Assembly: GCA_037143135.1 (NCBI GenBank)
Contig: JBAWZH010000001.1
Coordinates: forward strand, 9,553-73,552
DNA: 64,000 nucleotides
Source of the DNA: a bacterium
GTDB taxonomy: Bacteria; Verrucomicrobiota; Kiritimatiellia; CAIKKV01; CAITUY01
Reading direction: 5' to 3'
In this document: in pieces, positions 17,501 through 63,289 of the stretch
Position numbering within the stretch: the stretch's first letter is position 1
How the letters are laid out: every line of letters begins with the position of its first letter
Translations under genes and position numbers: made by a program
The notes under the pieces: model-generated
Seen by the model: only the letters and a program-made list of their open reading frames with translations
Databases searched by the model: none
What the model was told of the DNA's origin: nothing

Positions 17501-17501
17501 T

Positions 17502-18608: not shown

Positions 18609-18612
18609 ACCA

Positions 18613-33009: not shown

Positions 33010-33011
33010 CC

Positions 33012-34784: not shown

Positions 34785-34795
34785 GGAGAATTCAA

Positions 34796-35017: not shown

Positions 35018-35061
35018 TTTATCGGACAAGACTGCTGTCGCAAGGTGGCAAGGATTTAGCA

Positions 35062-47036: not shown

Positions 47037-47064
47037 TCCTATTCTTTTCCTTTCATGATTTCAG

Positions 47065-47388
47065 TTATTCAGCCCCACTGGCGGCTTTTGCCAATGTTTC
47101 GCGGATCAGTTTGAAATCCGTGTCCGCGTAGCGGTGCGGGATGTCATTGAGCCGCCTCTGTGCATGCTCAAGGGCATGTATAAGTTCACGAATCAAATCC
47201 GAGGCGCGATTCTTGGGAAGGTGTCGAGCTATGCCGTCCGACAGGTCAACCCTGACCATCTTCCCCCGGTATTGAACGTCAAACACCGTCGCGATGGACG
47301 CCGGATCCCGCTGAATGGCCAGCGCCTTGCGCGCCGCCTCCATGGGGGTCCTAGCATCTACATCTATTTCCCAACATACACGGATCAT
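47065..47388 (-). CDS. Hypothetical protein
   Basis: 107-aa ORF. Its start overlaps the upstream gene's stop. Confidence 0.45.
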   Translation of the reverse strand: MIRVCWEIDVDARTPMEAARKALAIQRDPASIATVFDVQYRGKMVRVDLSDGIARHLPKNRASDLIRELIHALEHAQRRLNDIPHRYADTDFKLIRETLAKAASGAE

Positions 47389-47612
47389 CGGTACACCTCC
47401 GGGGTTAAATCGTCATGCCAGCCTTCCAATGTAATCAGCGGGTGATAATCAATGGACTCAAGATCGAGGTCGTCGATCTTGGCCACTTCCGCCTGTGCCG
47501 CCAAAACAGCAGCCGAAACGGAATCCGCCTCCACTTGAGCCAGGTATGTGTCGGTCCCAAAACCATCAGCCACATAGTCTGGCCGTAACAAAAGCACTGT
47601 ATATTTCTTCAT
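47385..47612 (-). CDS. Hypothetical protein
   Basis: 75-aa ORF in the operon string. Confidence 0.4.
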   Translation of the reverse strand: MKKYTVLLLRPDYVADGFGTDTYLAQVEADSVSAAVLAAQAEVAKIDDLDLESIDYHPLITLEGWHDDLTPEVYR

Positions 47613-47625
47613 GTCTTGCCTCTCA

Positions 47626-47910
47626 TCATGTTGTTTGTCCTTTTATTGGATCGAACCACGGCACAATCTGCCCAATGGCTTCCGGATCGCTGTTGCTAAT
47701 GGTGAAATCCCCATAGAGGACGCCGTCGTAGTACAGCAGATCGCCGACGAACTTCAGAAAATGCCAATCCTCGTCAGCCAGTTTCACCCGGTAGGTAGAC
47801 AGATAGGTGACGTGAAGTCCTCCGATTGCCAATAGCGGCCCATCGGATCCCCAGTCATTCATCTGCTCCTCCGGATTCTTACGCCCGTGATACAGCTTGA
47901 TTGTCAGCAT
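47626..47910 (-). CDS. Hypothetical protein
   Basis: 94-aa ORF that overlaps the upstream gene by 7 nt. Confidence 0.4.
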   Translation of the reverse strand: MLTIKLYHGRKNPEEQMNDWGSDGPLLAIGGLHVTYLSTYRVKLADEDWHFLKFVGDLLYYDGVLYGDFTISNSDPEAIGQIVPWFDPIKGQTT

Positions 47911-48368
47911 GACAGCATTCCCTCCCCAGCGCTAAAGTCCCTTGTTTCCCAGTGGGTGCCACTATGCTTGCCGTACGCCCCCACATAAACTTCGGTATCG
48001 GTGATGGTGAGGTGCATACAGTCAACACGCGTCACACTGTCATCCTCGATGGCGAACAACCGTTCGGCCTCCTCATGCCCGATTCTGGTTGCTGTTCCGC
48101 CATCTAGCCCTTCCCGCAGTCCCTCGACGTCATCCACCCAATCCGGTAGATAATTGAGGAATTGTACGCGCGGACCGGGCCCGGTCTTTACCGAGTACCA
48201 CCGGCCGCCTGTGTCCATTATCTTTAATTGCCGCCGCACCATCTCAACTACGCACTCTTCAGCCTTCGTCCACTGAAAAACCAAATACCGTGTGTCCTCC
48301 ATGGAATTCCCTGTAGCTGGCGCCTCGGCGATGTAATAGCCTTCTTTCAATTTATTTTTCATGCTCAT
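47904..48368 (-). CDS. Hypothetical protein
   Basis: 154-aa ORF. Confidence 0.45.
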   Translation of the reverse strand: MSMKNKLKEGYYIAEAPATGNSMEDTRYLVFQWTKAEECVVEMVRRQLKIMDTGGRWYSVKTGPGPRVQFLNYLPDWVDDVEGLREGLDGGTATRIGHEEAERLFAIEDDSVTRVDCMHLTITDTEVYVGAYGKHSGTHWETRDFSAGEGMLSC

Positions 48369-48418
48369 GATTCCTTCCCGGAAACCCGGCCTTGTTTGAG
48401 GCCTGGCTCCATTACTTG

Positions 48419-48703
48419 TTATGCTGCTTTCTCCTTCATGAGCCCTGCTAGTGCATCTGCGACCCTTTGCAGGTCATCAGCCGCTGTCTGCATGGCTTTC
48501 ACCGCATTGGTGATTTGTTCCGTATCGGAAGCGTTGACGTCATAGATGTCGTGAATCTCCTGGGCAATGAACTGGGCCAGGGTGTCGCCACCCATCCTGT
48601 TCTCCCGGGGTTCCGACGCTTCCTTGTCCCAATACTCCAGGATGAAGGCTTCGGGATAAACCGATGCCGCGCTGGAGATCAGTTGATTCAATGTCATTCT
48701 CAC
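48419..48703 (-). CDS. Hypothetical protein
   Basis: 94-aa ORF. Confidence 0.4.
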   Translation of the reverse strand: MRMTLNQLISSAASVYPEAFILEYWDKEASEPRENRMGGDTLAQFIAQEIHDIYDVNASDTEQITNAVKAMQTAADDLQRVADALAGLMKEKAA

Positions 48704-48769
48704 TCCTTAATAGAAAGGCCCGCTCGACCAAAATAGGCAAAGCGGGCTGGTTGTTTTGATGTTTGTTAA

Positions 48770-49483
48770 CTATGCCGCGAAACCGGGTAGCTCCTGTTGC
48801 CCGTTACGGATCACCACATCAGGAACGGCGTCCGGGATCACATCGGGAATGGCCTCTTGGCTTGTCGCGGAAACTTGCCCCGCCAACAGCCCGGCCATCC
48901 TGCCGAAATAATCCAGTCCATTCATCCTGAGTTGAATCCGGCACATGTTCACGCACCGGATATCCATGTCGGTTCCGTAGAGCCTGAGCTTGCCGGTCCC
49001 CCAGCGTCCCAACGCCTGATGTACAACTTTGGCGAAGGATAGGAGCATGACTCCCGACCCGACCGCCGGATCACACACCGTGACAACGCCTTTCTCTTCA
49101 ACCAGTTGCTTGAATGTTTCCTGGTCAAATTGCATGCGCGCCATCATTTCGGCGATTGGCTCTGGAGTGAAGAACTGTCCGGAACGCACTGAGTTGACGT
49201 CCAGCCGCATGAAGAGTTCCCCCAGGATATCCCGGAATGGATCTTGTTCAACGGCGTCAACGTACAATCCCAGCAACCGGCTAAATTCTGCACCCTCGGC
49301 CCCGCTATACCGATCCAGGCACTGCTTGAACCCAGCAGGATCCTTCACGGCATCGAGAAATGCCCACATGGCTTCGAGCCAATTCCGGTAAAGGTCATAC
49401 GAATGCATATGACCAAACACAGGATTATTTTCAAAGCTACGGGCAAGCTCCTCGAACGCCGATCGCGTTACTGCGCTACCCAT
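48770..49483 (-). CDS. N6-DNA-methyltransferase-like SAM-binding protein lacking catalytic motif IV
   Basis: SGQFFTPEPIAEMMARM (motif X), VCDPAVGSGVMLLSF (motif I), LYGTDMD (motif II/III). No (D/N)PP(Y/F) follows before the stop. Confidence 0.55.
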   Translation of the reverse strand: MGSAVTRSAFEELARSFENNPVFGHMHSYDLYRNWLEAMWAFLDAVKDPAGFKQCLDRYSGAEGAEFSRLLGLYVDAVEQDPFRDILGELFMRLDVNSVRSGQFFTPEPIAEMMARMQFDQETFKQLVEEKGVVTVCDPAVGSGVMLLSFAKVVHQALGRWGTGKLRLYGTDMDIRCVNMCRIQLRMNGLDYFGRMAGLLAGQVSATSQEAIPDVIPDAVPDVVIRNGQQELPGFAA

Positions 49484-49531
49484 TCTTTTCCCGCCTTTCC
49501 AGCTTTACGCGATTGCATCGATAATCTGATG

Positions 49532-49786
49532 TCATGCATGTTTCATGTCCTCCTTTCGCTCCAGGTACCGGCGTTCCCAGTCTAGGCATTCCTGACGGGA
49601 AGGCGCAGTGAAGAGGGGTTGCCCCTTCATGTCCTTGACCCGCCATGACTGCTTGACGTTATCGAACTCGATGCGGGTCGCCCGGCTGATCTTGAGTCGG
49701 CCCAGGCAGGCGAGATCAATGACCTCGCTATAGGTGCCCCGAATCATGCCTTTGGGTGTGAAGATGAGTGAAGCCACCGCATTCAT
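49532..49786 (-). CDS. Hypothetical protein
   Basis: 84-aa ORF with a 4-nt overlap to the upstream gene. Confidence 0.4.
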   Translation of the reverse strand: MNAVASLIFTPKGMIRGTYSEVIDLACLGRLKISRATRIEFDNVKQSWRVKDMKGQPLFTAPSRQECLDWERRYLERKEDMKHA

Positions 49787-49980
49787 TGTCCCACCTTCTG
49801 TTCCTGGCGTTGTGTGTTGCGGATGAAGTAGTCCGCCTTCTTGGTTTTCCGGCCTGTCACCCCCAGCGCTTTCTCCAGAAAGGCTGTTGCCTTTTCACAG
49901 TCCGCGCCCTGAAACCCCATGGCCTCAATGCGAATGGTGCCGTCCGGCGCCACCACCACTTCAATGGTTTTCTGTGTCAT
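49783..49980 (-). CDS. DUF2997-like small protein
   Basis: MTQKTIEVVVAPDGTIRIEAMGFQGADCEKATAFLEKALG resembles DUF2997. The internal ATG at 49980 overlaps the upstream stop (ATGA). The ORF-track start 50151 would overlap the neighbouring gene by 175 nt. Confidence 0.5.
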   Translation of the reverse strand: MTQKTIEVVVAPDGTIRIEAMGFQGADCEKATAFLEKALGVTGRKTKKADYFIRNTQRQEQKVGQ

Positions 49981-50363
49981 TGGCGGGGCCCTCCTGAAAG
50001 AAGCACTTTGATGCTTCCATTCTTGAGACCTTGCCGCGTGACCATGTAGCCTTTGCGGGTGGCTTCCATGGCGGTTTTCCACACGCCATAAAGCTGGAGC
50101 AGTTTTCCGTAGTTTGCTCCGACTTCCTTTTCCACATGGCCGTCCCACCAATCGGTGGTAAGACCATAGGTGCCGTCGGGCTGCCGGTTGACGGCAATGT
50201 CATAGGGCCCTTTGAGCACAATAATGTGCTCACCAATATGGCGGTTGGCGCCATACCCCCTTGCTTCGATTCCCTGCCTGAGTGAAAGGCCTATCTCCTC
50301 ACAGGCCTTGCGTAGCGCCTCAATGTCCTTGATTTGTGTCGTTATCGTTGTGAAATGACTCAC
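49977..50363 (-). CDS. DUF1257-like protein
   Basis: VSHFTTITTQIKDIEALRKACEEIGL resembles the DUF1257 N-terminus. GTG 50363 has AAAGGAGAA 7 nt upstream; the ORF-track start is 50447. Confidence 0.55.
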   Translation of the reverse strand: MSHFTTITTQIKDIEALRKACEEIGLSLRQGIEARGYGANRHIGEHIIVLKGPYDIAVNRQPDGTYGLTTDWWDGHVEKEVGANYGKLLQLYGVWKTAMEATRKGYMVTRQGLKNGSIKVLLSGGPRQ

Positions 50364-50443
50364 TTTGGTTCTCCTTTTATTAATGAAAAAGCCCACGCCC
50401 CGGTAAAGGGCAGTGGGCCTTATTGTTTGCTGTAGGTATTGGA

Positions 50444-51517
50444 TCAACCGGCTTTCATCATGGGCGCTTCATCCTGGCGTTCCACGAAACCGGGTTCTGC
50501 CAGAGGGGCGGTCGCGATATGGAGCTTTCTGTGGCCCAACTGGCCAAACTGCTCCACAAGTTGACGGTTATCCTGCCGGGTCATCTCCCGCGCTGTATCC
50601 GCCAGTGACTGCAACCCCGTCTGGAGTTTGCCCCGGTAGAACGCGCTGTCCCGGTATTGTTCAGCCGGCCGGGTCAGGAATTCCTGCCTCACCCGGTTCA
50701 ACTGTGCCTCAAGCTCAACGTCGCCGACAAAGTTCAAAGATTTGAACTCATCAATGAACTTCACCAGCCGGTTGAGCGTTTTCTGGTGTACCCCGGTCTT
50801 TCCGGACTTCATGCTATCCAGCATTTCCTCGCAGAGTTTTGCTGTCTGCTCCCGCAGGGATGCCACACAATCCGAGACAAAGCCCTCCACACCCTTGTGG
50901 ATTTGTTCGGCTGCCTCCCGGACCGCCTGGTCCCTGGCATTGATGATATCCTGCTGTTCCCCAAGGCTGATCTGATCCATCGTGAACCCATCCGGCACAC
51001 TGATCTGGAAGAGTTGGGTCGTGAACCCAAAGGACCGCTCCATCCTTTCCGGTGTGGGGAAGGCTTCCTCGATCTTTTCGACCAATCTTTCCGGGTTGCC
51101 GCCGAGTCGCCCTGCGGCTTCCCGCCATTCGGCAAGACCCAGTGCGCGCATTTCGGCGTACCGGCCCAGGAAAACATCCTTTTCAGCCATGAATTCCTGT
51201 TCCAGTTTCGCTAGCTTGCCCATGGTTTCCTCCAGCCGGGTATTGGGCAGAAAATGCCCGAGTCCGTTAAGGAATGGAAACGTACACGTATCCACCAGCG
51301 CATGGGTTCGGCTCTCAATCAGGGCAAAGGCCTGCAATGATCCCCGTGGAATCAGGTTCTTATGCCCCAGGCTGAAAAGCCGCTTTTCCACGCTCTCCGG
51401 ATCCAGACCCAGATCCTCAGCGGTCAGTTTCTTGGTAGCCCGCCAGTAGCGAACCGATACATTCAAAAGCACGCCTTTGCGGGTGAGTACGTCCAATATA
51501 TGATTATTATCCTGCAT
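50444..51517 (-). CDS. Conserved mobile-element protein, possibly DUF3150-like
   Basis: 357-aa ORF. The N-terminus LLNVSVRYWRATKKLTAEDLGLD is reminiscent of DUF3150. The family name is recalled from memory and not verified. Confidence 0.45.
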   Translation of the reverse strand: MQDNNHILDVLTRKGVLLNVSVRYWRATKKLTAEDLGLDPESVEKRLFSLGHKNLIPRGSLQAFALIESRTHALVDTCTFPFLNGLGHFLPNTRLEETMGKLAKLEQEFMAEKDVFLGRYAEMRALGLAEWREAAGRLGGNPERLVEKIEEAFPTPERMERSFGFTTQLFQISVPDGFTMDQISLGEQQDIINARDQAVREAAEQIHKGVEGFVSDCVASLREQTAKLCEEMLDSMKSGKTGVHQKTLNRLVKFIDEFKSLNFVGDVELEAQLNRVRQEFLTRPAEQYRDSAFYRGKLQTGLQSLADTAREMTRQDNRQLVEQFGQLGHRKLHIATAPLAEPGFVERQDEAPMMKAG

Positions 51518-51568
51518 TGTTATTCTCCTGTTTTGTGTTGTTTTCTTATCCTGCCAGCTTGTCCGCCA

Positions 51569-52243
51569 TCAGGGCGTCAGTCGGCATTTTGTTTTCATAC
51601 TGTTCGATTTCATCTCTGCCGGGGTCGCCATCCTGAGCCTTACGGTTCGAGCCAAGGCAACACCCATAACACTCCGGGCACCTGCTTCACGCAGAACCCT
51701 CGCGCATTCCCGCATTGTGGCCCCAGAGGTCAGCACATCATCCACCAGGATGACATGACACCCTTCCACCGCTAACTTGTCGGATACTGCGTAAAGACCG
51801 GTCACATTGGCCTTTCGTTCCTTCATACCCGCACACTGATGCTGTTTCTTGCCCTTGGGGCGCAATTGCACGAGCAGTGTGTCCAAGTGAACGTTCACCC
51901 GGCGGCCCAGATGCCGATAGATGCTTTCTGCCAACATTTCCGGAGCGCCGTGTCCATAAGCGTTGAACAGGTATTGCACCGGTTCAGGCTCAGCGGGCAC
52001 ATGCGTAACCACATAGGACACATCATTCCCAAGCCAGCGCTCCAGCCGTTCTGCAATCATGACCCCAAATTGGTCTATGATCTCAGTGGCCCGCCGCTTG
52101 GCCAGGATGACAGCCCTGCTCCAATCAGAATGTTGGTGTTCAACAGCCTGATGGCGGGGGTAATACACACCAAAAGCATGTATCCAACCTGAATCCACTA
52201 TCTCTCTTGGAACTAAATGCAGAAAACCAAACCGGTTTTCCAT
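51569..52243 (-). CDS. ComF-like phosphoribosyltransferase-domain protein
   Basis: PRPP-binding loop HVILVDDVLTSGATMRECARVL. Confidence 0.7.
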   Translation of the reverse strand: MENRFGFLHLVPREIVDSGWIHAFGVYYPRHQAVEHQHSDWSRAVILAKRRATEIIDQFGVMIAERLERWLGNDVSYVVTHVPAEPEPVQYLFNAYGHGAPEMLAESIYRHLGRRVNVHLDTLLVQLRPKGKKQHQCAGMKERKANVTGLYAVSDKLAVEGCHVILVDDVLTSGATMRECARVLREAGARSVMGVALARTVRLRMATPAEMKSNSMKTKCRLTP

Positions 52244-52421
52244 ATAACCTTCCTTTCAATGAAAAAAGCGGCCCTGTCATGGGGACCGCCCGTTACTGTC
52301 TGATCCACCGACCCCTCTACAACAGAATCCTGCCACCAGGGCAGAGCTCCGCCATAAAAGGGTGTCGGTGGGTTATTATTCTTCAATCAACCGCATTGCA
52401 CGGTTGCGATTCATGCGCGGT

Positions 52422-52904
52422 TCAGTCGAACTCGCATAGGCCTGATTCACGCATGGACAGAAATTCCCGGCTGACGGTCGCCATGTTGTCGCCGTGCTTT
52501 CGCCCGACGATGACATGATCCAGCACCTTGATGCCGAGAATCTGACCACCCTGAATCATCTGTTTGGTCAACTTGACGTCTTCCGCGCTCGGGGAGGGAT
52601 CGCCGGAGGGATGGTTGTGCACGAGTATGACGGCCGACGCGCTTTCGCTGATCGCCCGCCGAAACACCTCTCGCGCATGAACGAGGCAGGAATCCACCAC
52701 GCCCATGCCAATCATCCGTTTGTCCAATAACCGGTTCCTTGTGTTCAAGGCCAGTACCACAAAGGTCTCCTGGCCCAGATCACGCATTTCCCGGCATTCT
52801 ACCCAGGTATCTTCCGGGGTGCGGATCATGGTGGTTCCGTCCCTCGCCAAAGGCAACTCGCACATGAACGAGATTGCCCGGTATTCAGGTTTTTTCATCA
52901 CCAC
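52422..52904 (-). CDS. radC: RadC-like JAB/MPN-domain protein
   Basis: JAMM motif AVILVHNHPSGDPSPSAEDVKLT. Confidence 0.8.
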   Translation of the reverse strand: MVMKKPEYRAISFMCELPLARDGTTMIRTPEDTWVECREMRDLGQETFVVLALNTRNRLLDKRMIGMGVVDSCLVHAREVFRRAISESASAVILVHNHPSGDPSPSAEDVKLTKQMIQGGQILGIKVLDHVIVGRKHGDNMATVSREFLSMRESGLCEFD

Positions 52905-53269
52905 TCCGATCCGTTTCCATCACCTGAAGCTTCAACAATTCCCTGTAACTCCAGCACTTCAAGGCTGCGTTCATCCACAATAACCTCTGTGCTGTACTTG
53001 GTCTGCCCATCCTTGGTCTCGAACTTGGACGTGTTAACCCGGCCTTCCAGCCCGATCAACACACCTTTCGGATCCCCGGTCAGCAGGCTGATGGCGAGTT
53101 CGGACGGACTGAACACCACGCAAGGCACAAAGGCCTTGTGAGGCTTTTTGTCCTTTCCCCCATGACCATTCTTTGTGGCCAGCGTAAACCTGAGAACCTT
53201 CTTCTCATTACCATTCAATGTGCCGCTGCGCGGCAGGGTTCCAACTCCTATGAACTTATTCATGATCAT
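52898..53269 (-). CDS. ssb: Single-stranded DNA-binding protein (OB fold)
   Basis: MNKFIGVGTLPRSGTLNGNEKKVLRFTLA ... FVPCVVFS ... LIGLEGRVNTSKFETKDGQTKYSTEVIV follows the SSB OB-fold pattern. Confidence 0.7.
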   Translation of the reverse strand: MIMNKFIGVGTLPRSGTLNGNEKKVLRFTLATKNGHGGKDKKPHKAFVPCVVFSPSELAISLLTGDPKGVLIGLEGRVNTSKFETKDGQTKYSTEVIVDERSLEVLELQGIVEASGDGNGSEW

Positions 53270-53975: not shown

Positions 53976-53979
53976 GTAC

Positions 53980-54234
53980 TTACCGTGCCGCCGCGATTCT
54001 TCGGTCGATTTCAGATCCGAGGGCATCGGATAATACCACTGCAATGAATGCCAGCAGGACAATCATGAAACCCATTTCCATAGCAATTAAGAGGGTCATC
54101 GTTCCCGCAAAGAACATGATGCCAAAACTGACTGCGATGAGGGCAAGAAAGGATAAAAGGCGTCCGCAGATATAGATGACGACGCTACGGATTGAGTTAT
54201 TTCTGTTTCTCATATTTGACCCTCCACATGTCAA
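53980..54234 (-). CDS. Small two-TM membrane protein
   Basis: 84-aa ORF with two hydrophobic helices (VVIYICGRLLSFLALIAVSFGIMFF, LLIAMEMGFMIVLLAFIAVVL). Confidence 0.35.
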   Translation of the reverse strand: MTCGGSNMRNRNNSIRSVVIYICGRLLSFLALIAVSFGIMFFAGTMTLLIAMEMGFMIVLLAFIAVVLSDALGSEIDRRIAAAR

Positions 54235-54254
54235 TAATGGGGCGTATCAACTAT

Positions 54255-54995
54255 TTAAAGCTTTCGGGCGAAATCATCCGTGATCTCGTTATACGCCGCG
54301 CGTACAGCTTCCTCTGATGGATTGAGGTAAACGCTGGTGGCCCGGAGTGTTCTATGGCCAACCTGTTTCTGAACAATCGGCAGAGGTAGCTTGTAGCTGT
54401 GGATATGATGCATGATATGCGAGTGGCGCATGGAATGAACCGTGATCTGGCGCAGTTTTCGGCCTTTGGAGTCCTGGCCATACTCCCGGTTGAATCCGGC
54501 TTTAATGACATAGCGCTGGAATATCTGCCGTATTCGATTCTCACTGTAATGCCTGGCGGATCGAGTGGATCGCCGGAATAGATATTCATCCGGGCTGGTC
54601 ACACTTTCCGTTCGTTTCAACATCCGACCTTCCCTCCTGAGGAGGCTTTTGATCTCATTGATGACACCTTCCGGAAGGTGACTGGTCCGCTTGTGGCCCG
54701 TCTTGGTGTTGTCTGCTGGGATAAAGACGCTGTTCCGGCTGAAATCAAGGTGTTTGACCTGGATCCTGACAAACTCACCTACACGGCATCCAAGGTGGTA
54801 AATCACTCTGAACATGAGTTTGTGCCGGTAATCCTCTATACCATCAAGGAGTTTCTGCCATTCATCCAAGGTCAGGTACCGAATGGTCTCCCCAAAACGC
54901 TCATATTTCGGGGAATGTTTCACATTTGACGCTTTTGGGCCGATTCCGGCCTGTTTCACGCTTGGGAATGATTCGTTTTCTGTCATTTTCTTCAC
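54255..54995 (-). CDS. Tyrosine recombinase / integrase (short form, 246 aa)
   Basis: YHLGCRVGEFVRIQVKHLD (box I Arg), VHSMRHSHIMHHI (H-x-x-R), GHRTLRATSVYL (catalytic Tyr). Confidence 0.8.
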   Translation of the reverse strand: MKKMTENESFPSVKQAGIGPKASNVKHSPKYERFGETIRYLTLDEWQKLLDGIEDYRHKLMFRVIYHLGCRVGEFVRIQVKHLDFSRNSVFIPADNTKTGHKRTSHLPEGVINEIKSLLRREGRMLKRTESVTSPDEYLFRRSTRSARHYSENRIRQIFQRYVIKAGFNREYGQDSKGRKLRQITVHSMRHSHIMHHIHSYKLPLPIVQKQVGHRTLRATSVYLNPSEEAVRAAYNEITDDFARKL

Positions 54996-55139
54996 ACTGG
55001 GTCACAAATGTGAAGTTCGCCCCCTATTTATAGTTTGCGGAGAAAGCCTGAATAGTGAGAGACGTTACTTTTTGCCACCAACCGGCGGGGTTTTGAGTAT
55101 GCAAAGGTATATAAACCCTGATTGCGTTGTCATCCCAGA

Positions 55140-55361
55140 ATGACAACACATAATAAATACACCGAGAACACAAAGCTGTACCGGATGCTTGAAAGCATGG
55201 ATCGGGACATCAAAGGGATCGGCGTCGCCGTGCGAGGCATGAATGACACGGTCAGCGAGTTGCTGGCTAGAACTGAATGCATCTACGATGCCGTCTCCCA
55301 GCAACCTGAAAGTCGCATCGCCGGCATGACCGACGATAGCTTTTTGGATGAACTGGAATAG
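55140..55361 (+). CDS. Small hypothetical protein
   Basis: 73 aa from ATG 55140, embedded in the inverted repeat GTTGTCAT-N6-ATGACAAC (55127-55148). The ORF track uses TTG 55122. Confidence 0.3.
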   Translation: MTTHNKYTENTKLYRMLESMDRDIKGIGVAVRGMNDTVSELLARTECIYDAVSQQPESRIAGMTDDSFLDELE

Positions 55362-55905
55362 TAGGGATTCAGCGCGCGAGCAAAGAATGAATCGCCGTTC
55401 ATAGCGTCAGACGCGTCCAATCAGGGAGAACGGCAAACACTGATCCCCTGCGATTCTAGCAAGATCTGTAACGATCCCCGCATGTCCTGGATGATGAACC
55501 CTGCCGTAACAAACGTATTACCCCCGGCGAAAATCGTGCCCTATGGTCGGTAAATGCTCCTTATGACACGTGGGGAGGTGCGGATCCAACGGCTGCGGCA
55601 ACTTCATGGTCGGCGTGGCGGCGCGAAGTCCGCCTCTGCTGTTCAGCCAATGCAACCTCTAATCTCTCGTTAAAGGGAAAATCCCTGCGAACGACGATCT
55701 TCCACAAATAATTGTGGAATGCCCCCGTATCGGGAAGTATAGTCTAGACAAAGGGTGGCGGAATGGTCATTGAGCCGTGTCTCACAATGATGAATGAGAA
55801 AGTCTATATACATTATCGGGATGTTTTCCGTGGATAACAGGCAGGACTTTCGACTTTATCAAGATAATCGGGATCGGAATTAATAATTGTTGGGCATGAA
55901 ATATT

Positions 55906-56622
55906 GTGAGCAGTGCAATCAAATACGTCCTCAGCAACAAAGAGTGGATATTCTCCGGCTGTGGCTTGTTAGTTGTTAGTGCGATCGTATGGCTACTGCG
56001 CAGCTTGTTTTTCAGAACAAAAGAGGGAAGGCGCAGCGATGTACGGAGCGCATCAAATGCCGAGACGGAAAGCGTGCGCACGAAGAAAAGCCAGAACGAA
56101 GTGCCGCAACATTGGCATGGGATAATGCCTCCCGACAGCAAGTACAGCTTCTCGACAACAGAAGAGAGTTCATTCCCGATTGGCGAACAAACAATTTCGC
56201 TGGAATATGGTCCACGTGGGCACGCTTATCCCTTGCAGATGAAGGGATCACTCGTCAGCGCGCATATCGCCTTTACATGCCGAATCGTCAATGTTTCTCA
56301 GGCAATAGCCGGAGCAGACGGTTACGCATTGAATATCCTCCCGCCCATGTTCCTGACAGCAGCGAGATCTGTGCTTGAGTCTGCAACACTGTCACAACTC
56401 CGAAACGGGAGGGAGCGATACGCTACAGATGTCGTGAACAAGCTCAAACCACTCTTCAGCAAGCATGGCTTTCATCTTGAATCCGTGACTATTGGCGCAC
56501 TTGAGAGACTTGAACGGCCGGCGGCTGACAAGCGCAAATCAACAACTCTGATTAACGTGAACGTGACCCATCAAGTGCCCAACAATCGACCGGAGGTTAT
56601 TCGCCCGAAGACAGGCGAATAA
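55906..56622 (+). CDS. N-terminally TM-anchored protein with SPFH/band-7-like C-terminal half
   Basis: TM helix WIFSGCGLLVVSAIVWLL. AHIAFTCRIVNVSQAIAG ... LTAARSVLESATLSQLRNGRERYATDVVNKLKPLFSKHGFHLESVTIGALE resembles the SPFH pattern. Confidence 0.4.
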   Translation: MSSAIKYVLSNKEWIFSGCGLLVVSAIVWLLRSLFFRTKEGRRSDVRSASNAETESVRTKKSQNEVPQHWHGIMPPDSKYSFSTTEESSFPIGEQTISLEYGPRGHAYPLQMKGSLVSAHIAFTCRIVNVSQAIAGADGYALNILPPMFLTAARSVLESATLSQLRNGRERYATDVVNKLKPLFSKHGFHLESVTIGALERLERPAADKRKSTTLINVNVTHQVPNNRPEVIRPKTGE

Positions 56623-56677
56623 CCTCAGCCGTAACGTTAGGCCACCAAATTGAGATTGTGGAAACAAAGGAGCGGGA

Positions 56678-57427
56678 TTGAGACCTGAGACGCATTTTGC
56701 CGATTGGAGGGAGTTCGAGGACTACGTCTATGGCTTACTTCTTACCGCCAAGCCTGCGCTCGCACATCGCAATCTCGCTGTCCACAAACACAGACGGATG
56801 CGCGGGAACCGCACAACATGGACGATTGACGTGGAGTACGAACTTGATGTGCTTGGCATCAGGCATGTCGTCTTGGTTGAGTGCAAGTACTTCGCTCGCA
56901 AGGTCACACGACGGGAAGCCTCCTATCTCCTCGCGTGTGTGCAGGATGTCGGAGCGGCCAAAGGCATTCTCGTTAGCAATCAAGGGTTCACGGCTGGGGC
57001 TAGGGAAGTCGTTGCCGCCTCGCCCGTTCTTCTCCTTCAAGTCCCGGAGTTGTTCGGGATCTTGGAGGCTGATTTGCTTGTGTCCCTGAAGAAACGGCTC
57101 TTCCGCGACATAATCGACATGCGCGACGAGGCAATCTGGGTGCCAAAGGTTCGCGGCTTTGGCGGTGACCACGGGAGGTTCGTCGAGATTCAGAGTGAAC
57201 TGAGTCAGTACGTGGACTTCCCCCATCGCTTCCCTTTGCCCCTCGCCTTCAGCCGCCTCCAACTCGATGGACAGGATTCTGCGCCCATCAAGATCAGCAG
57301 CAAACTTGAATACGTCCTAACAGTGATTGACAACATCGCCGAGGTCAGGAAGCAGTACGGCGATAGGTACGGCTTCGCTGGATGTGAATACACGCAACAG
57401 CAGGAAGCACAAGAGCAGAGAGCCTAA
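56678..57427 (+). CDS. Mrr-like (restriction endonuclease fold) protein
   Basis: WTIDVEYELDVLGIRHVVLVECKYFARKVTRREASYLLACVQDVGAAKGILVSNQGFT shows the D ... E-x-K core of the Mrr_cat type. TTG start. Confidence 0.6.
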   Translation: MRPETHFADWREFEDYVYGLLLTAKPALAHRNLAVHKHRRMRGNRTTWTIDVEYELDVLGIRHVVLVECKYFARKVTRREASYLLACVQDVGAAKGILVSNQGFTAGAREVVAASPVLLLQVPELFGILEADLLVSLKKRLFRDIIDMRDEAIWVPKVRGFGGDHGRFVEIQSELSQYVDFPHRFPLPLAFSRLQLDGQDSAPIKISSKLEYVLTVIDNIAEVRKQYGDRYGFAGCEYTQQQEAQEQRA

Positions 57428-57694
57428 CAAAAGTACGGAAGGTATGGCGCTCCCCTGCGCTCCACGCCAACCTTCACGCTATTTGTACCTCGCCCACTCA
57501 GGTTATAAGGAGCATTTGCCGATCGTGAGGACACTGATTCCTGAGTTAATGATGTTAGAGGTTTTGCCCAACTATATTATCCTGATCCTGGCGATTCCTT
57601 CTTGATGCTCCCACCCGGCGGTGACACTCATGTGGGTTCGGTTCATGGAAACCTTTATATACTGCTCCACCTTCTCTACCCCGAGGTGAAGCCA

Positions 57695-57886
57695 ATGGGA
57701 AAAGGAAGACCGTCGAAATGTCCACACTGCAAGAAATCCGCAAGAAGTATATCCAAGGGGTTCAAATACCGTGCTCATGGAAAAGCTAAGGATCGGAAAT
57801 GTTGCAACTGCGGTAAAAGATATCTGGTTGAAGTGAAGCCGGGCATACATCGTGTGTGCCCGTCTCACGACTGTATGTCCGATTGA
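57695..57886 (+). CDS. Small zinc-ribbon protein
   Basis: CPHCKK ... CCNCGKRY gives two CxxC pairs. GAGGTG RBS before ATG 57695; the ORF-track start is 57602. Confidence 0.4.
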   Translation: MGKGRPSKCPHCKKSARSISKGFKYRAHGKAKDRKCCNCGKRYLVEVKPGIHRVCPSHDCMSD

Positions 57887-57898
57887 GAATACCTCTGG

Positions 57899-58219
57899 GT
57901 GGTGTCATGTCAGATGAAGAAAAACGATGAAGGGATCCAGAAGTTAATCGCAGAATTGCGTTTGTTATACGGAAAAGTTCGGGGGGAACGCGAGTTCCTC
58001 GCGCTTAAAAAGTCAGAGCTCCGGCCGGGTGATGAAATCTCGTTCTTTGGTTTCATACAAGCGCGGGAGCAGTTGGCGTGTGAGACATCATTACTGACCG
58101 GCCATGCGATCCTGGTCCAGGAGATCATTGCCAGGAAGAAGATCGTGGTTCCTGCGGCTGATCAGCGTTTTCTAAAGGAGATCAACGCCCTTTCTTGGAT
58201 GTATATATCCCGCATCTAA
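57899..58219 (+). CDS. Hypothetical protein
   Basis: 106-aa ORF with helical composition. Confidence 0.35.
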   Translation: MVSCQMKKNDEGIQKLIAELRLLYGKVRGEREFLALKKSELRPGDEISFFGFIQAREQLACETSLLTGHAILVQEIIARKKIVVPAADQRFLKEINALSWMYISRI

Positions 58220-58299
58220 CCCGGCGGGTTTCTGCCAATGCAAAGATATATAAAGGGGCTTTGTGTCTTATCACTGTACTACTCAGGAATGACAACAAC

Positions 58300-58887
58300 A
58301 TGGCAAACTATTCATTTATGACCGATCAAGGTTGGCGGGTTACGGAATACCGTCCATTCAGCCCAAGCTATGCGGTTTTGCATACGCCGGGAATGAAGGA
58401 GGAACGCAAATCCGCCTATGCAACTGCATTGTATTCTCATAGTGAGACAACCAATCTGGCGCCGGATGAAAACTCATCAGGGGACTTGCTCAAAACTCTC
58501 ACAGGCCAACAATTGAAGTTCGATTATTTCTCGGAGGATGTGCTGAAACAATTGCTCAAAGAGCGGGTGACTATACGCGACAGGAACCGTGCCGCGATCC
58601 AAGGCCGGCTTTCGGATCTTTCGGGCGAAATATACGGAGCAGTAATACTCAAAACACCCGATGGGGATAAACGCAGGCAGGGCTTGGAAAAGACCAAGAT
58701 GGATCTTGAAAAACAACTTCGCGACGAAGATGTTACGCTCTGGAAGGATGCCGTCGAACTTAGACGGGAACTCATTATTGCTGCCAAGAAATATGAAGGC
58801 ACAAAACTCAGGACCGGACTATTTGCTATGCCGCTGACTCAGGATGACCAACATAAAATCGAAGGATACGGTAACTTTTCAGGATAG
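58300..58887 (+). CDS. Hypothetical protein with coiled-coil C-terminal half
   Basis: ATG 58300 chosen because ORF-track start 58195 overlaps the previous ORF. Its 3' end overlaps the ATPase gene by 44 nt. Confidence 0.4.
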   Translation: MANYSFMTDQGWRVTEYRPFSPSYAVLHTPGMKEERKSAYATALYSHSETTNLAPDENSSGDLLKTLTGQQLKFDYFSEDVLKQLLKERVTIRDRNRAAIQGRLSDLSGEIYGAVILKTPDGDKRRQGLEKTKMDLEKQLRDEDVTLWKDAVELRRELIIAAKKYEGTKLRTGLFAMPLTQDDQHKIEGYGNFSG

Positions 58888-60514
58888 ATGCATCGCGCTT
58901 CGCCCAATTCTGGGGAAACAGGTCGATCAGATATGGCAATGCTACCTTTTTCAGGATGAAGATGGAAAATTCGAACTAGAGCAACAGCTTGAGCTCATGG
59001 TCAATTCGGCACTGAATACCGATGTGCAGGATAAAGCCCCAGTCTTTCCGCCGCCAACCGCCGAGGTTGCCGCCGGGGAGATTGCCCTCGGTGATGTCGA
59101 ATATAATCATAAGCCATATTGTCCCTTCGGGCTCAGGAAAGACGAACTGATGAAGCACGTCGGGCTCTTTGGTCAAACCGGTACCGGTAAAACCAATGCC
59201 GCCCATCTTCTGGCCTCCCAAATTCACAAACTGGGCACTCCGATCTGGGTGCTTGAATTCAAAAGGGGTTGGAGGGAATTGCGAGCATTGCCGGAATTCC
59301 AGGATTTATTGGTATTTACCGTCGGGCGTAATGACATTGCCCCCATTTCTTTCAACCCGCTCATCCCGGTGGAGGGCGTGGACCCGCATACATGGATAAA
59401 GAAGATCTCCCACACAATTTCCAACGCGTTCTTTCTCGGGCAGGGAGTTCTCTATTTGCTGGAGGTTGTTTTGGCAAAGCTATACGAGGAATATGGGATC
59501 TTTGAGGGTAAACCGGAGCGATATCCCACATTTCGGGATGTCTTGCGAATGCTGCAGAATTACCCGATCCGAAGTGGTAGGGAAACCCTTTGGCTGTCCT
59601 CAGCGCTAAGGGCGATACATTCGCTGTGTTTTGGCCAGATGGACCGGATTGTTAATGCCCAGGGAAATGACAGTCTCAAATCCCTGATCAATCATTCTGT
59701 CGTTTTTGAAATGGACTCCCTTGGCCATGAGGACAAGGTTTTCTTCACCGAATGTGTCATGCTCTGGGCCTATGAATATTACCAGGCGAGGCCGGTTAGG
59801 GAACAACTCCAACTGGTGATGTTCCTTGAGGAGGCCCATAACATCGCCGGGCGACAGGGACGGGATGATTCCGGGTCTAAGATCATTGTGGATCAGATGT
59901 TCCGTCAGAGCCGTGAATATGGGATTGGATTGGTCATCATAGACCAGATGCCCTCCGCCATCTCGCGTACGGCCCTGGCCAATGTGCATTGCCTCATCGC
60001 TATGGGTGTAAAAGAGAAGGCGGATGCCGTGGCTTTGACAGGTTCCATGCTGTTGGATCGGGAGCAGGGCGACATGCTCGGGCGACTCAGTCTGGGATCC
60101 GCGATTGTTAAGTTGCAGCGAAAGGGGCTGATTGATCCCTTTATCTTGAAGACCCCCTTGATGCCAGTGAAGAAGGGAACTATGTCGGATGATATGATCC
60201 GGGATATGATGCAGGTATATGTCCGGCCCGTTGAACATTCTGGAGAGGCATCCCATTCGACTTCTCAGCCGAAACTCTCGGAATCAGAAATGGCACTATT
60301 GGTGGATGTGGCGATCATGCCCGACTCCGGCGTGGTGGCGCGATATACAAGATGCAAACTGTCCGGCCGACAGGGCGACAAGGCCAAACGATCCCTGATA
60401 GAAATGGGATTCATCGAGGAAGTTGAACAGCTTACCCCAAGGGGGCGTTCAAAAATGATTCGGCTTACCGAAAAAGGAACGAGTTTTCTGGAAGCCAGGC
60501 CATCTGAAATATAA
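58844..60514 (+). CDS. HerA/FtsK-superfamily (DUF87-like) P-loop ATPase with C-terminal winged-helix
   Basis: VGLFGQTGTGKTNAAHLLA (Walker A), LVMFLEEAHNIAG (Walker B), and C-terminal wHTH-like LSGRQGDKAKRSLIEMGFIEEVEQLTPRGRSKMIRLTEKG. Confidence 0.7.
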   Translation: MTNIKSKDTVTFQDRCIALRPILGKQVDQIWQCYLFQDEDGKFELEQQLELMVNSALNTDVQDKAPVFPPPTAEVAAGEIALGDVEYNHKPYCPFGLRKDELMKHVGLFGQTGTGKTNAAHLLASQIHKLGTPIWVLEFKRGWRELRALPEFQDLLVFTVGRNDIAPISFNPLIPVEGVDPHTWIKKISHTISNAFFLGQGVLYLLEVVLAKLYEEYGIFEGKPERYPTFRDVLRMLQNYPIRSGRETLWLSSALRAIHSLCFGQMDRIVNAQGNDSLKSLINHSVVFEMDSLGHEDKVFFTECVMLWAYEYYQARPVREQLQLVMFLEEAHNIAGRQGRDDSGSKIIVDQMFRQSREYGIGLVIIDQMPSAISRTALANVHCLIAMGVKEKADAVALTGSMLLDREQGDMLGRLSLGSAIVKLQRKGLIDPFILKTPLMPVKKGTMSDDMIRDMMQVYVRPVEHSGEASHSTSQPKLSESEMALLVDVAIMPDSGVVARYTRCKLSGRQGDKAKRSLIEMGFIEEVEQLTPRGRSKMIRLTEKGTSFLEARPSEI

Positions 60515-60698: not shown

Positions 60699-61796
60699 TT
60701 ACTGGAACCGGGCGGAAAAGACGGCGCTCAGTTCCTCGGGTGAGACTAATGGCTCAATCCTGTTTGTAAAGGTCCGATCTACTTTGGCGCTGACCAGCAG
60801 GATCAGGCCAAGGGATGCCAAGTATCCCAGGGTTGAATAGAATTGTGTGTAACCGTAGGGTTCCTCCCCGCAAGCCCGACTCAGGGTGCTATAATGCTGA
60901 TACACCGACTTCACCAGTTTTGAAGACTCTTCCATGCTTGCCTTAAGAATGAGGAGCGCCTTGTCATTGGTACCCACCAGGACATCTTTCACCACATCTT
61001 CCCGTGCCTTGGCAAAACACTCATCCACGGTTGGAGCCTCCCCGGTGGAACAGTAAAGGAGGGCCTTGATGGCGACCCTGACATCGCCGTTTGTATTCTT
61101 GGCCGTCATGGCGGCGATTTCTTCCAACAACCCAGGAGCAACCCTCTTTAGGCCTGTCTCTGCCCGGTCTTTCAGGATGTCTAGGATCTCACTGGCTGAG
61201 TAGGTTCTGAATGATATGACTTCTGGCTGGAGTGAGGAGCGAGTGCTCTCATCCAGTTGCTTAAGGTAGCGGTGGTTATTGCTGAGGAGGACCAGGGAAT
61301 AGCGGTTGGGGCTTCGGCTCAGGAAGTACAGGATATCCCGCTTGAGGTCATTTTCGACCAGCATGTCGGCCTCGTCGAGGACGATGACCGCCGGGCCGGG
61401 GATTTCCTTCTCGAATCGTTCGCATAGCTCGGAATAGGCGTACCCCCGCGGCTTGGCTTTCAAGATGGCGGCCAATGCCTTAAAGCTGGAATTATGGATC
61501 CGGCAATTCACGCCAAAGAAGGGGAGTTTTAGCTTTTCAGAAAAGGCTTTTTCAAGGTACCGAAATGTCAGGGTTTTCCCGCAACCCCTGGCACCGAATA
61601 CCATCATGTTTCGGGCAATCCCGCTACCCTGATAGCGGACCAGGCAGTCCACAATCCGTTTAACTTCAGGCCGAATGACCGGCCGGTCCGGGATGTGGTC
61701 GAAGCTGAAAACCCGGAAGTCCTTTACACTGGATGCGACGCGTTCAGCCTCCTGACGCGACTGCTCAATGTATGCCAATAACTCTTCCTGACCCAT
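60699..61796 (-). CDS. Orc1/Cdc6-type AAA+ protein with C-terminal winged helix
   Basis: FDHIPDRPVIRPEVKRIVDCL, MMVFGARGCGKTLTFRYL (Walker A), AVIVLDEADML (Walker B), ISFRTYSASEILDILKDRA, TNGDVRVAIKALL, and the wH-like YTQFYSTLGYLASLGLILLV. Confidence 0.8.
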   Translation of the reverse strand: MGQEELLAYIEQSRQEAERVASSVKDFRVFSFDHIPDRPVIRPEVKRIVDCLVRYQGSGIARNMMVFGARGCGKTLTFRYLEKAFSEKLKLPFFGVNCRIHNSSFKALAAILKAKPRGYAYSELCERFEKEIPGPAVIVLDEADMLVENDLKRDILYFLSRSPNRYSLVLLSNNHRYLKQLDESTRSSLQPEVISFRTYSASEILDILKDRAETGLKRVAPGLLEEIAAMTAKNTNGDVRVAIKALLYCSTGEAPTVDECFAKAREDVVKDVLVGTNDKALLILKASMEESSKLVKSVYQHYSTLSRACGEEPYGYTQFYSTLGYLASLGLILLVSAKVDRTFTNRIEPLVSPEELSAVFSARFQ

Positions 61797-62145
61797 TCTC
61801 TTTTGACGTATTCACCTCACTCTTCAAGATGAATCGAAGTTAATAAACCTTTCGCTTTCTTGCTGAAATGGTGGCCAAAATAATTAATTTCCATACTTCT
61901 CATTATCCCCCCTCTCTCCTCAAAATTAATTAATCTCATTACAAATCAACAACTTACACAACAAAATCAATTCACATCATAAAATCAATACTCGTCGTCA
62001 CACGTCGTCGTCCCGTCGTCACGCGAACGCCAAAGCGACCGCGCACTCCCTTACTTCCACACCCTATCTTTCATCTCCCTGCCCCCAGAAATCATTACCA
62101 ATAACATCCCCAGATTCCCATCATTACACATCATAACTTCAATAC

Positions 62146-62294
62146 TCGTCGTCGTCCGTCGTCGTCCGTCGTCGTCCGTCCGTTCGTCCGTCCGTTCGTC
62201 CGTCCGTTCGTCCGTCGTCCGTTCGTCCGTCCGTTCGTCCGTCCGTTCGTCCGTCGTTCGTCCGTCCGTCGTCCGTCGTCCGTCCGTCGTCCGT
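62146..62294. repeat. Tandem 10-mer/12-mer repeat tract (CGTCGTCCGT x3, then CCGTTCGTCCGT x3 + CGT + x3, then degenerate copies)
   Basis: Read directly from 62146-62294. A related CTCGTCGTC...CGTCGTCGTC...CGTCGTC patch lies at about 61990-62020, and TCAATACTCGTCGTC occurs at about 61985 and about 62139. Confidence 0.85.
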
Positions 62295-62448
62295 TACTAT
62301 AAATATGGCACCCGCAGGTGCCCTTTACTTTCGTCTCCGTTATATCATCCATCCGTAGGCGTATCCGAGGCCTCCATCAGCGCGCCGTAGCGCGCCTATC
62401 TCCATTTGCCCAAAGTTGGCCCCGCCAACCTGATATTTGGACAAGCTG

Positions 62449-62607
62449 TTATCCGCTAACAGCGATTCTTCCGCTTGCCTCCAATACCTCTCTTGCTCGA
62501 TTAACGAGCCAAAGATTATCTGTTTTCTTCACTGAAGCCGCTTCGGCTTCCTGAATCATATCTTTGACAAGCTTCAAGAGCTCTTTGAGTCGCTTTGTGT
62601 CTTCCAT
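62449..62607 (-). CDS. Small helical hypothetical protein (52 aa)
   Basis: ATG at 62607 has AAAGGAGGTG 8 nt upstream, which favours this start over ORF-track start 62640. A hairpin GTTGGC-GGG-GCCAAC followed by TTT lies just downstream (62415-62429). Confidence 0.4.
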   Translation of the reverse strand: MEDTKRLKELLKLVKDMIQEAEAASVKKTDNLWLVNRAREVLEASGRIAVSG

Positions 62608-62640
62608 TCTCTGAGCACCTCCTTTTACTGATTTTTCCAT

Positions 62641-63289
62641 GCCGGAGGCCGCGGGCTTCGATAGATAAATTTTTCGGTTACCGCAGTGACCGAAAGATTT
62701 ACTGAGCGAAGCCTGCTTCGTTCGGGAAAAATCAGGGAGGTGCGAAGCCAGAAATCACACAATGCGGCAAACGAGCGCCGCTTGTCTTTTCGGCTTCCTT
62801 GCCTTCCTGGTTCCCTTATAGATAGTTGCCCGCGCGCGTATTCATAACCGCCCGCAGGCGGCTAACGTTAGGGGTGGGCGAAGCCCCCTCGCATTAGCGT
62901 GCCGCAGCACGCCTAGATTTCGTCGTCAGTCGTCATATGCGCGCCGCAGCGCGTCTATCATTTCCCCTTCGGTCGAAGACCGAAATCCGGGTCCCGTTCC
63001 CTGACACGGGCTCACAATGCCATTCAAATGACCGTGTCATTTCATAAGCGCCCTCTGGAGCCAGATTCAGAGCGGTACCTCGAATCTGGTGACGAGCGGC
63101 AGCGGATCACCGAACGGACCGAAAGCCATTGGGTTGAGGTTGAGTGTCCGTTACCCTCCCACGAAACCTCCCCTTGGGTTTCGTGTCCGGAGGACAATTC
63201 GTCCCCCATCTTCCCTTCATCCATCTCTCGCTATATCCCTAAACAAGACAACGCCCCGACGGGGGCCCGTCAAGGCGTCGCTTGTTTCC
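62641..63289 (-). ncRNA. Candidate large structured RNA or structured leader (strand uncertain)
   Basis: A roughly 650-nt stretch without a credible ORF contains at least 10 stable hairpins, several with conserved CGCA loops on different stems. See findings. No Rfam family recognised by eye. Confidence 0.3.

Follow-up and report, generated by a model that had tools for sequence, protein, structure and literature searches.

We analyzed a stretch of 64,000 nucleotides (the window) from contig JBAWZH010000001.1 of a bacterial metagenome-assembled genome (MAG), concentrating on six plus-strand open reading frames (ORFs), here called O1 to O6, at positions 55906-60514. We found that O6, which encodes an ATPase, is paired with O5, which encodes a small helical-hairpin protein: an O5 homologue lies immediately upstream of O6 in 73 of 81 loci, with the two ORFs usually overlapping or abutting. 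Homologues of O1 and O2 were present in none of the 80 related loci. An earlier, sequence-only reading of this region had proposed checking neighbor conservation, and the outcome was mixed, the O5-O6 pair being kept and O1 and O2 not. From co-occurrence and synteny, the six genes are therefore a composite of a backbone (O4-O5-O6), a roaming gene (O3) and inserted cargo (O1-O2). We tentatively propose, at a little under an even chance, that an integrated plasmid-like element, which replicates through an Orc1/Cdc6-like initiator, uses O5-O6 as a module for site-directed DNA translocation.

The locus sample consisted of 80 loci with an O6 relative from species-representative genomes, in which the O6 family had at least 316 matches; counts out of 81 add the window to this sample. 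Labels such as L003, L004, L081 and L082 denote individual O6 loci, and L084 denotes a contig with an O2 homologue. In L082 and L083, whose O6 is 57% identical to that of the window, the order is genes for a phosphoribosyltransferase-domain protein (PRTase), RadC and a single-stranded DNA-binding protein (SSB) on the minus strand, then three small genes, O5 and O6 on the plus strand, then an Orc-like gene on the minus strand, followed by host surface-protein genes. A translated comparison showed that the window and L082 are collinear at the protein level across PRTase, RadC, SSB, an 83-amino acid protein, a 79-amino acid protein, O4, O5, O6 and the Orc-like protein. Relative to L082, the window contains two extra blocks, 53976-55100 (a membrane protein and an integrase) and 55362-57898 (O1, O2 and O3). 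The genes for the 83- and 79-amino acid proteins, O4, O5 and O6 are contiguous in L004, and the synteny of L003 with the window starts exactly at O3 (57601) and extends to the window end. The gene content, the O5-O6 pairing, the collinear backbone and the two insertions were thereby directly established. The features of this region are listed below.

51569-52243, minus strand: PRTase, left backbone arm (Pfam Pribosyltran, E = 6.6e-9; 53% amino acid identity to L082 5933-6565)
52422-52904, minus strand: RadC-like JAB protein, backbone (Pfam RadC, E = 1.5e-38; collinear with L082 6969-7295)
52898-53269, minus strand: bacterial-type SSB, backbone (Pfam SSB, E = 1.7e-12; collinear with L082 7460-7711)
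53724-53975, plus strand: small backbone protein of 83 amino acids, first gene of the plus-strand block (69% amino acid identity to L082 8142-8384)
53980-54995, minus strand: insertion 1, an 84-amino acid membrane protein (53980-54234) and a 246-amino acid tyrosine recombinase (54255-54995)
55122-55361, plus strand: small backbone protein of 79 amino acids (homologues in L004, L005 and L082 8455-8709)
55906-56622, plus strand: O1, N-terminally anchored SPFH/Band-7-like protein, cargo of insertion 2 (238 amino acids, hydrophobic N-terminus)
56678-57427, plus strand: O2, Mrr-type PD-(D/E)xK nuclease, cargo of insertion 2 (249 amino acids; Mrr_cat)
57602-57886 (probable start 57695), plus strand: O3, small zinc-ribbon protein (two CxxC pairs, CPHC...CCNC)
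57899-58219, plus strand: O4, 106 amino acids, backbone in the closest relatives only (directly upstream of O5 in L003, L004, L005 and L082)
58300-58887, plus strand: O5, helical-hairpin protein, obligate partner of O6 (195 amino acids)
58844-60514, plus strand: O6, soluble FtsK/HerA-superfamily ATPase (556 amino acids; Walker motifs, winged helix)
60699-61796, minus strand: Orc1/Cdc6-like AAA+ protein, convergent with O6 (TIGR02928, E = 3.6e-37; lid and C-terminal winged helix)
61797-62960, no strand: repeat-rich intergenic region upstream of the Orc-like gene (AT-rich tract, tandem array, hairpins)

The earlier reading had left two options, a DNA-transfer or packaging module of an integrated element, or a defense set made of an Mrr nuclease and an ATPase. 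The integrated element fits better, with O4-O5-O6 collinear with the PRTase-RadC-SSB arm and the Orc-like gene; the packaging role fared poorly, with viral contigs near-empty of the family. The Mrr-plus-ATPase set is not supported, because O1 and O2 never co-occur with O6 and sit inside an insertion relative to L082 and L004. We searched the O-proteins against Pfam, PADLOC, NCBIfam and PHROG. O1 gave a partial match to Band_7/SPFH that covered profile positions 60-145 of 176 (E = 2.8e-6; 27.9 bits, cut-off 23.6). O2 matched Mrr_cat (E = 1.1e-9, 38.8 bits against a cut-off of 21) with its D...ExK residues intact (IDVEYE...VLVECK) and carried a C-terminal extension of about 120 amino acids. Only three O2 relatives were identified among 5.8 billion proteins; one of them, 50% identical, lies on small contigs with no O6 nearby. 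Upstream of O2, as of this homologue, stands a gene for a membrane-anchored protein (about 215-240 amino acids; the second pair lies at L084 684-2154); the protein before the homologue has two membrane segments and no detectable relation to O1. A conserved O1-O2 pair was discarded as a candidate, since a metagenome scan found none and the membrane proteins before the O2 homologues are unlike O1. In view of these sequence comparisons, the simplest reading of O1-O2 is an independent and very rare cassette in which a membrane protein accompanies an Mrr-type nuclease; it may be defensive. For annotation, neither the Mrr-type nuclease nor the SPFH-like protein should be labeled a partner of the ATPase.

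The remaining small genes differed in their conservation. Homologues of the 83-amino acid protein occurred in 14-15 O6 loci; it had no match in Pfam, NCBIfam or PHROG, and it may be a PC4/YdbC-like single-stranded DNA binder. O4 likewise had no family match in these three libraries. O3 homologues were found in 10-12 loci at variable positions and on both strands, a pattern suggesting an accessory gene that moves between positions from element to element. Insertion 1 is absent between the matching genes of L082 and L004. Its recombinase matched Phage_integrase in Pfam (E = 7.6e-23); integrases were present in 18 of the 81 loci, and integrase homologues adjoin the Orc-like gene in L044 and L025.

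We then confirmed the gene calls on which these comparisons depend. The ORF list contained all six co-directional ORFs that had been called, flanked, as had also been described, by the tyrosine integrase on one side and the Orc1/Cdc6-like gene on the other, both on the minus strand. O3 to O6 are not chance ORFs, because homologues elsewhere keep the same order, and neither is O2, because homologues exist; for O1, the Pfam match is the sole support as a real ORF. The longest ORF of O5 opens at a TTG at 58195 (58195-58887); all homologues begin at MANYSF, corresponding to the ATG at 58300, which was therefore taken as the start. The 44-nucleotide overlap reported between O5 and O6 (58844-58887) was reproduced. 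The true start of O3 is probably the ATG at 57695, giving about 63 amino acids, because its homologues measure about 58-67 amino acids. In the NCBI annotation of the source contig, O6 is shorter (505 amino acids) and starts 51 residues later. Since O6 homologues align from residues 1-16 onward and Y34 is almost invariant, the 556-amino acid form is favored; judged by conservation of the N-terminal helical domain, the public start (58844-58996 region) appears to be 51 codons too late.

The translation of O6 contains the Walker A (GQTGTGKTN) and Walker B (FLEEAH) motifs that the earlier reading had pointed out, and its assignment to the HerA/FtsK type was borne out by these motifs, by Foldseek and by Pfam matches just above cut-off to DUF87 (26.8 bits) and HerA_C (23.6 bits). 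In the AlphaFold2 model (pLDDT 86), O6 consists of a helical N-domain (residues 1-57), a β-hairpin (80-97), a RecA-like core with a helical insert (181-281) and, as had been predicted at its C-terminus, a winged helix (480-550) of three helices and two strands. This last region also gave a PHROG regulator match (497-548) and a weak ScpB match. The model contains no HAS barrel, the part before the P-loop being occupied by the helical domain and the β-hairpin. Foldseek returned a probability of 1.0 for HerA, the C-domain of DndH and VirB4. The fold and domains of O6 were thus directly established. In nearly all of a set of 120 homologues, the Walker A motif is positioned around residues 105-110. 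A hydropathy scan of the same set detected an N-terminal membrane segment in none.

Curated sequence models placed O6 at a distance from each named family. Its best NCBIfam match was CedD (NF053655; E = 2.6e-25, residues 78-422), which reached 89 bits against a cut-off of 600, and NCBIfam HerA equivalogs scored 26-32 bits (about 1e-8) against cut-offs of 800-970. PADLOC matches were partial (HerA, 2e-13, residues 310-422; mad8, 9e-12; DndH, 1.5e-9, residues 74-368), and TrwB_AAD_bind reached 13.5 against a cut-off of 20.5; some O6 homologues pass the P-loop_TraG or TrwB_AAD_bind models. The window O6 did not match FtsK_SpoIIIE (PF01580), and its homologues gave weak sub-threshold matches. We found no genes for a type IV secretion system (T4SS), relaxase, VirB4 or Ced proteins in the window, nor, for the first 23 of the 80 related loci, among the 150 ORFs lying no more than 5 kb from O6. 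Thus, neither a clear assignment to a coupling-protein or VirB4 family nor accompanying T4SS genes, which the earlier reading had named as evidence against it, was found. The lack of a membrane anchor, of T4SS genes and of capsid genes is a direct observation. A classical HerA identity was ruled out by the N-domain, the model scores and the partner (no adjacent NurA, SIR2 or DUF4297), and a membrane coupling protein by the missing membrane segment and T4SS genes. Sequence and model together point to O6 as a soluble member of the broad FtsK-HerA superfamily, predicted to be of the ring type.

Many relatives of O6 carry an additional domain. About 115 amino acids follow the winged helix in 33 of 81 loci and in 48 of the 120 database relatives (for example P0044, P0045, P0054, P0104 and P0118, and loci L006, L007 and L009). 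This domain contains the motifs EH..W, vDvvA and IAIEIETGKSD; Pfam is blind to it, and weak profile matches to Cas4 (4r5q, 0.003), AF1548 and Hjc were obtained. These sequence features indicate a PD-(D/E)xK-like nuclease fold. The window O6 does not have the extra domain, and in nine loci with the short variant, a small nuclease gene lies downstream. The theme of an ATPase with a nuclease survives at the level of the O6 family, and not by way of O2.

O5 had no family match in any of the four libraries. At 50% identity, its homologues fell into 207 representatives, all small, and no fusion partners were found among them. In the O5 model, a disordered linker joins a conserved N-terminal β-hairpin motif (YSFTTDQGWRVTEYRPFSPSYAVLHTP) to a long antiparallel helical hairpin (59-176). 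A fold search returned generic coiled-coil hairpins only, such as PspA, HP0958, YscO and V-ATPase subunit D; any likeness to ring-ATPase stalk proteins is speculative. Two recurrent gene blocks surround the pair in related loci. One runs VWA, MoxR, a 463-amino acid protein without a Pfam match (c29), O5, O6 (L014, L042, L046, L063 and L066), and the other O5, O6, a 380-amino acid protein (c80), MoxR, VWA (L007, L009 and L011). O5-O6 may work with MoxR/VWA modules in some lineages.

The Orc1/Cdc6-like gene was located within 10 kb of O6 in 25 of the 81 loci, and it stands convergent and directly after O6 in the closest relatives. Its product has recognizable domains (Cdc6_lid, 3.3e-5; Cdc6_C, 9.8e-5), and its closest solved relatives are archaeal (Sulfolobus solfataricus Orc1-1, 2qby_A, E = 1.7e-18, residues 32-331). 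With 128 bits, it falls below the TIGR02928 cut-off of 181, which suggests a divergent Orc1/Cdc6 member or a sister group. In archaeal integrated elements, Cdc6/Orc1 homologues have been interpreted as the replication initiators (PMC6563490), and a 2026 survey of bacterial plasmid initiators names Orc1/Cdc6 only as a distant winged-helix relative.

Upstream of this gene, the intergenic region contains an AT-rich tract at about 61840-61990 (GC 0.25 versus 0.49 for the window), a 48-nucleotide direct repeat at 61966 and 62120, and a 146-bp (TCGTCCGTCCGT)n tandem array (62149-62295) that is not conserved in other loci. Between 62308 and 62953, five perfect GC-rich hairpins with 5-bp stems and CGYA loops (CGCA or CGTA) lie on one strand; read on the opposite strand, their loops are UGCG or UACG. 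The 64 kb contain no others of this type. In the equivalent place of L003 (13200-13560), we found three such hairpins together with the shared motifs GGCACCCGCAGGTGCC and CACGCGAACGC...GCGACCGCG. No Rfam family was detected anywhere in the window. Region 61797-62960 may be a candidate origin, a protein-binding array or a structured RNA.

O6 relatives were found mostly in MAGs of Planctomycetota, Verrucomicrobiota, Kiritimatiellae and Lentisphaerae. The archaeal context that the earlier reading had implied did not hold: the source is a bacterial MAG, the window proteins are bacterial, and the family is centered on phyla of the Planctomycetota-Verrucomicrobiota-Chlamydiota (PVC) group. A few relatives occur in archaea-labeled MAGs (L016, L028, L036 and L053, labeled Micrarchaeota, Bathyarchaeota, Methanomassiliicoccales and Nanoarchaeia), which could reflect inter-domain transfer or binning error. 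The loci also show signs of mobility. For the Orc-like protein, amino acid identity to the L003 counterpart is 94%, compared with only about 52% for O6, which gives the region a mosaic, mobile-element-like look. L082 and L083 are 99.8% identical from position 3847 on, with different genes to the left (NERD versus type I restriction-modification), which looks like a cargo swap and mobile-element-like behavior. Nine genomes have two O6 loci each; the paired copies of one such genome are about 90% identical over more than 12 kb. Neighbors of O6 include ArdC-like, ThiF/JAB/E2-like and MoxR/VWA genes, and about 10 of the 150 neighboring ORFs matched defense models.

We compared the O5-O6 pair with known systems. 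HerA rings, which act in HerA-NurA repair and in SIR2-HerA, DUF4297-HerA and TdpAB defense, are the top structural matches of O6 (4d2i, E = 6.6e-16) and share with O5-O6 the logic of a ring ATPase plus a partner. Unlike them, O6 has no HAS-barrel N-domain and aligns in sequence over the C-terminal half of the core only, and its partner is a helical hairpin instead of NurA, SIR2 or DUF4297. The best superpositions of the core were obtained with the C-domain of DndH/DptH (7es4, TM 0.74) and with VirB4 (4ag5, TM 0.73), with TM scores normalized by target length; these, however, are domains of much larger proteins or parts of a T4SS, and no Dnd or T4SS genes are present here. FtsK/SpoIIIE and Streptomyces TraB combine a pump ATPase with a C-terminal winged helix for the recognition of short DNA motifs, and TraB is carried by an integrating, self-replicating actinomycete element without a T4SS. 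O6 shows the same order of motor and winged helix, but it has neither an FtsK_SpoIIIE Pfam match nor a membrane anchor. In addition, the PVC hosts are not mycelial, and the replication protein is Orc1/Cdc6-like in contrast to the Rep of the TraB elements.

CedD/TedD is the VirD4-like ATPase of the crenarchaeal Ced/Ted DNA-import systems, and some CedD orthologues have no membrane segment (PMC11823120). It is the best curated sequence match of O6, and both proteins are members of the FtsK-HerA superfamily with a predicted hexameric pore. O6 nevertheless scores far below the cut-off, has a winged helix and a hairpin partner, occurs in a bacterial host and is accompanied by no CedA/CedB or pilin genes. 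Archaeal islands have been described that combine an integrase, an Orc/Cdc6-related ATPase and a HerA-like ATPase and are rich in genes without relatives (PMC4158269, PMC6563490). The window shares this combination, and these islands are the nearest published analogue, although their hosts are archaeal and those of O6 are mostly PVC bacteria. Our literature search found no description of the O5-O6 pair.

In the mechanism that we propose, O6 would assemble as a ring, like its relatives, and its winged helix would set it on a specific site of the element DNA. It would then spend ATP on moving or processing this DNA, either for transfer to another cell or for segregation or resolution. O5 would bind the ring as an adaptor or gate, and the fused PD-(D/E)xK-like domain in about 40% of relatives would add a cutting step. 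The Orc1/Cdc6-like protein would initiate replication at the neighboring repeats once the element has been excised or is coming in, and the products of the SSB, RadC and PRTase genes would handle single-stranded DNA on entry. A more general form of this proposal, which we consider rather unlikely, is that PVC-group and other environmental bacteria host a new class of integrating plasmid-like elements, equipped with an Orc1/Cdc6 initiator, a soluble and often nuclease-fused CedD/HerA-like ring ATPase and a hairpin partner, for DNA transfer or maintenance without a relaxase or T4SS.

Several observations speak against such an element. We found no element ends and no att-like direct repeats flanking the region; a tRNA gene was present in only 1 of 56 loci, with none anywhere in the window, and a search for terminal overlaps revealed no circular contigs. 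The right end of the island may lie beyond base 64000. A homology edge between L057 and L064, two copies in one genome, was considered as an element end (at about 9076) and rejected; because it lies inside a divergent gene, it represents a breakpoint of recombination. Itself part of an insertion, the integrase is missing from many loci, and no Orc-like gene lies within 10 kb in 56 of the 81 loci. In L081, O5, O6, the Orc-like gene and one further gene sit between host genes, an arrangement that looks as much like a small system as an element. Between L007 and L009, O5-O6-c80-MoxR-VWA is 90% identical and embedded in a syntenic region, which could reflect stable chromosomal inheritance. Sequenced plasmids and phages lack the O6 family except for relatives at about 25% identity, and no O6 member is therefore placed on a proven mobile replicon. 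Known plasmids were likewise dismissed as a home of O6, as these distant relatives lie within proteins of roughly 1000 amino acids from other families. Furthermore, there is no relaxase, T4SS or membrane anchor to provide a transfer route, and the fused nuclease of many relatives, together with the position at the edge of a defense island, would also fit defense.

The latter points lead to a serious competing possibility, although one that we regard as somewhat unlikely, that O5-O6 is a self-contained defense or anti-plasmid system carried by mobile islands. The ring would load onto foreign DNA, a nuclease or other effector would destroy it, and O5 would act as a sensor or inhibitor; the nuclease would be fused or adjacent in part of the family, and the Orc-like ATPase would possibly take part. 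HerA-type rings act with effectors in several solved defense complexes, the same ones that head the structural matches of O6, and the partial PADLOC matches to HerA, mad8 and DndH agree with this possibility. So do the fused domain in 33 of 81 loci and the small downstream nuclease in nine more, the two-gene unit in variable neighborhoods with more than one copy in several genomes, and the minimal islet L081. In the window, O5-O6 also abuts a defense island comprising a NERD-domain protein, a CBASS cyclase with an E2-like protein, a STAND NTPase, a DrmD-like SNF2 helicase, SIR2-HerA, a type III restriction-modification system and QatABCD. However, the genuine defense HerA of this island (32907-34784) matches, at 6e-148 and over its full length, the PADLOC model that O6 matches at 2e-13 over about 110 residues, and similarity between the two proteins is confined to the Walker A motif and a stretch close to Walker B. 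The missing HAS barrel, the nuclease-free subfamily of the window O6 and the small number of defense matches among neighboring ORFs also argue against defense, and the fixed order with SSB, RadC and the small genes suggests backbone, not cargo. A related proposal joins all six genes into one nuclease-plus-ATPase system. The genes are co-directional and close together, and a nuclease theme recurs in the O6 family, yet with O1 and O2 missing from all 80 related loci, O2 homologues on contigs without a nearby O6, and O1-O3 forming an insertion relative to L082 and L004, we find this scarcely credible.

Distinctly unlikely, in our assessment, is a replication module in which, with no MCM present, O6 would serve as the replicative helicase of the element after recruitment by the Orc-like initiator, and O5 would act as its loader or adaptor. 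In the closest relatives, the Orc-like gene lies convergently within about 200 bp of O6; it forms the minimal unit with O5-O6 in L081, and the Orc-like protein and O6 both contain winged helices. Most loci, however, lack an Orc-like gene inside 10 kb, a nuclease domain as found in many relatives would be odd for a replicative helicase, and the unequal divergence from L003 means that Orc and O6 are not tightly co-evolving. It is also highly improbable that O6 is the packaging ATPase of an unrecognized prophage, for example of a membrane-containing or pleomorphic virus, with O5 as a structural or scaffold protein. DNA packaging in double-jelly-roll viruses is carried out by ATPases of the FtsK/HerA type (PMC6563490), weak PHROG matches of O6 include a model labeled 'terminase large subunit' (5e-9), and the ATPase-plus-nuclease layout of the long variant is terminase-like. 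Against packaging, only 2 distant matches were found in 2.9 million IMG/VR contigs and 2 in 50,697 INPHARED phage records, no capsid, portal or tail families occur in the window or among the neighbors, and the viral fold search placed A32-like packaging ATPases low in its ranking.

The O5-O6 pair is among the commoner uncharacterized ring-ATPase modules in PVC bacteria, whose mobile elements are little known. If O5-O6 is indeed the DNA-handling core of elements with an Orc1/Cdc6-type initiator, the replication and transfer repertoire of bacterial mobile elements would be wider; if it instead serves defense, it would add a HerA-like branch with a new partner.

Further observations concern the rest of the window. 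From 40 kb onward, its GC content climbs to about 0.55, up from about 0.47. A CBASS-type pair at 13832-15672 consists of an oligonucleotide cyclase (PADLOC, 5e-108) followed by an E2-like protein (5e-36). Positions 28758-44436 form a dense defense run with a DrmD-like SNF2 helicase (1e-212), SIR2 and the full-length HerA (6e-148), a complete QatABCD and a type III restriction-modification pair with a TnsA-like endonuclease domain in its Res subunit. Downstream of the defense island, a minus-strand block (45492-53269) encodes an AAA ATPase, an N6 methyltransferase, DUF1257 and DUF3150 proteins, and the PRTase, RadC and SSB. The places corresponding to its 45492-51517 part (minus strand) are taken in related loci by ThiF/JAB/E2-like, MoxR/VWA and ArdC-like genes, and this part may be an establishment or anti-defense region of the island. 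Within the defense island, a Ser/Thr protein kinase, a 971-amino acid Sel1-repeat protein and an 832-amino acid Hsp70-like protein stand in a row at 17472-24529 and may form a system of their own.

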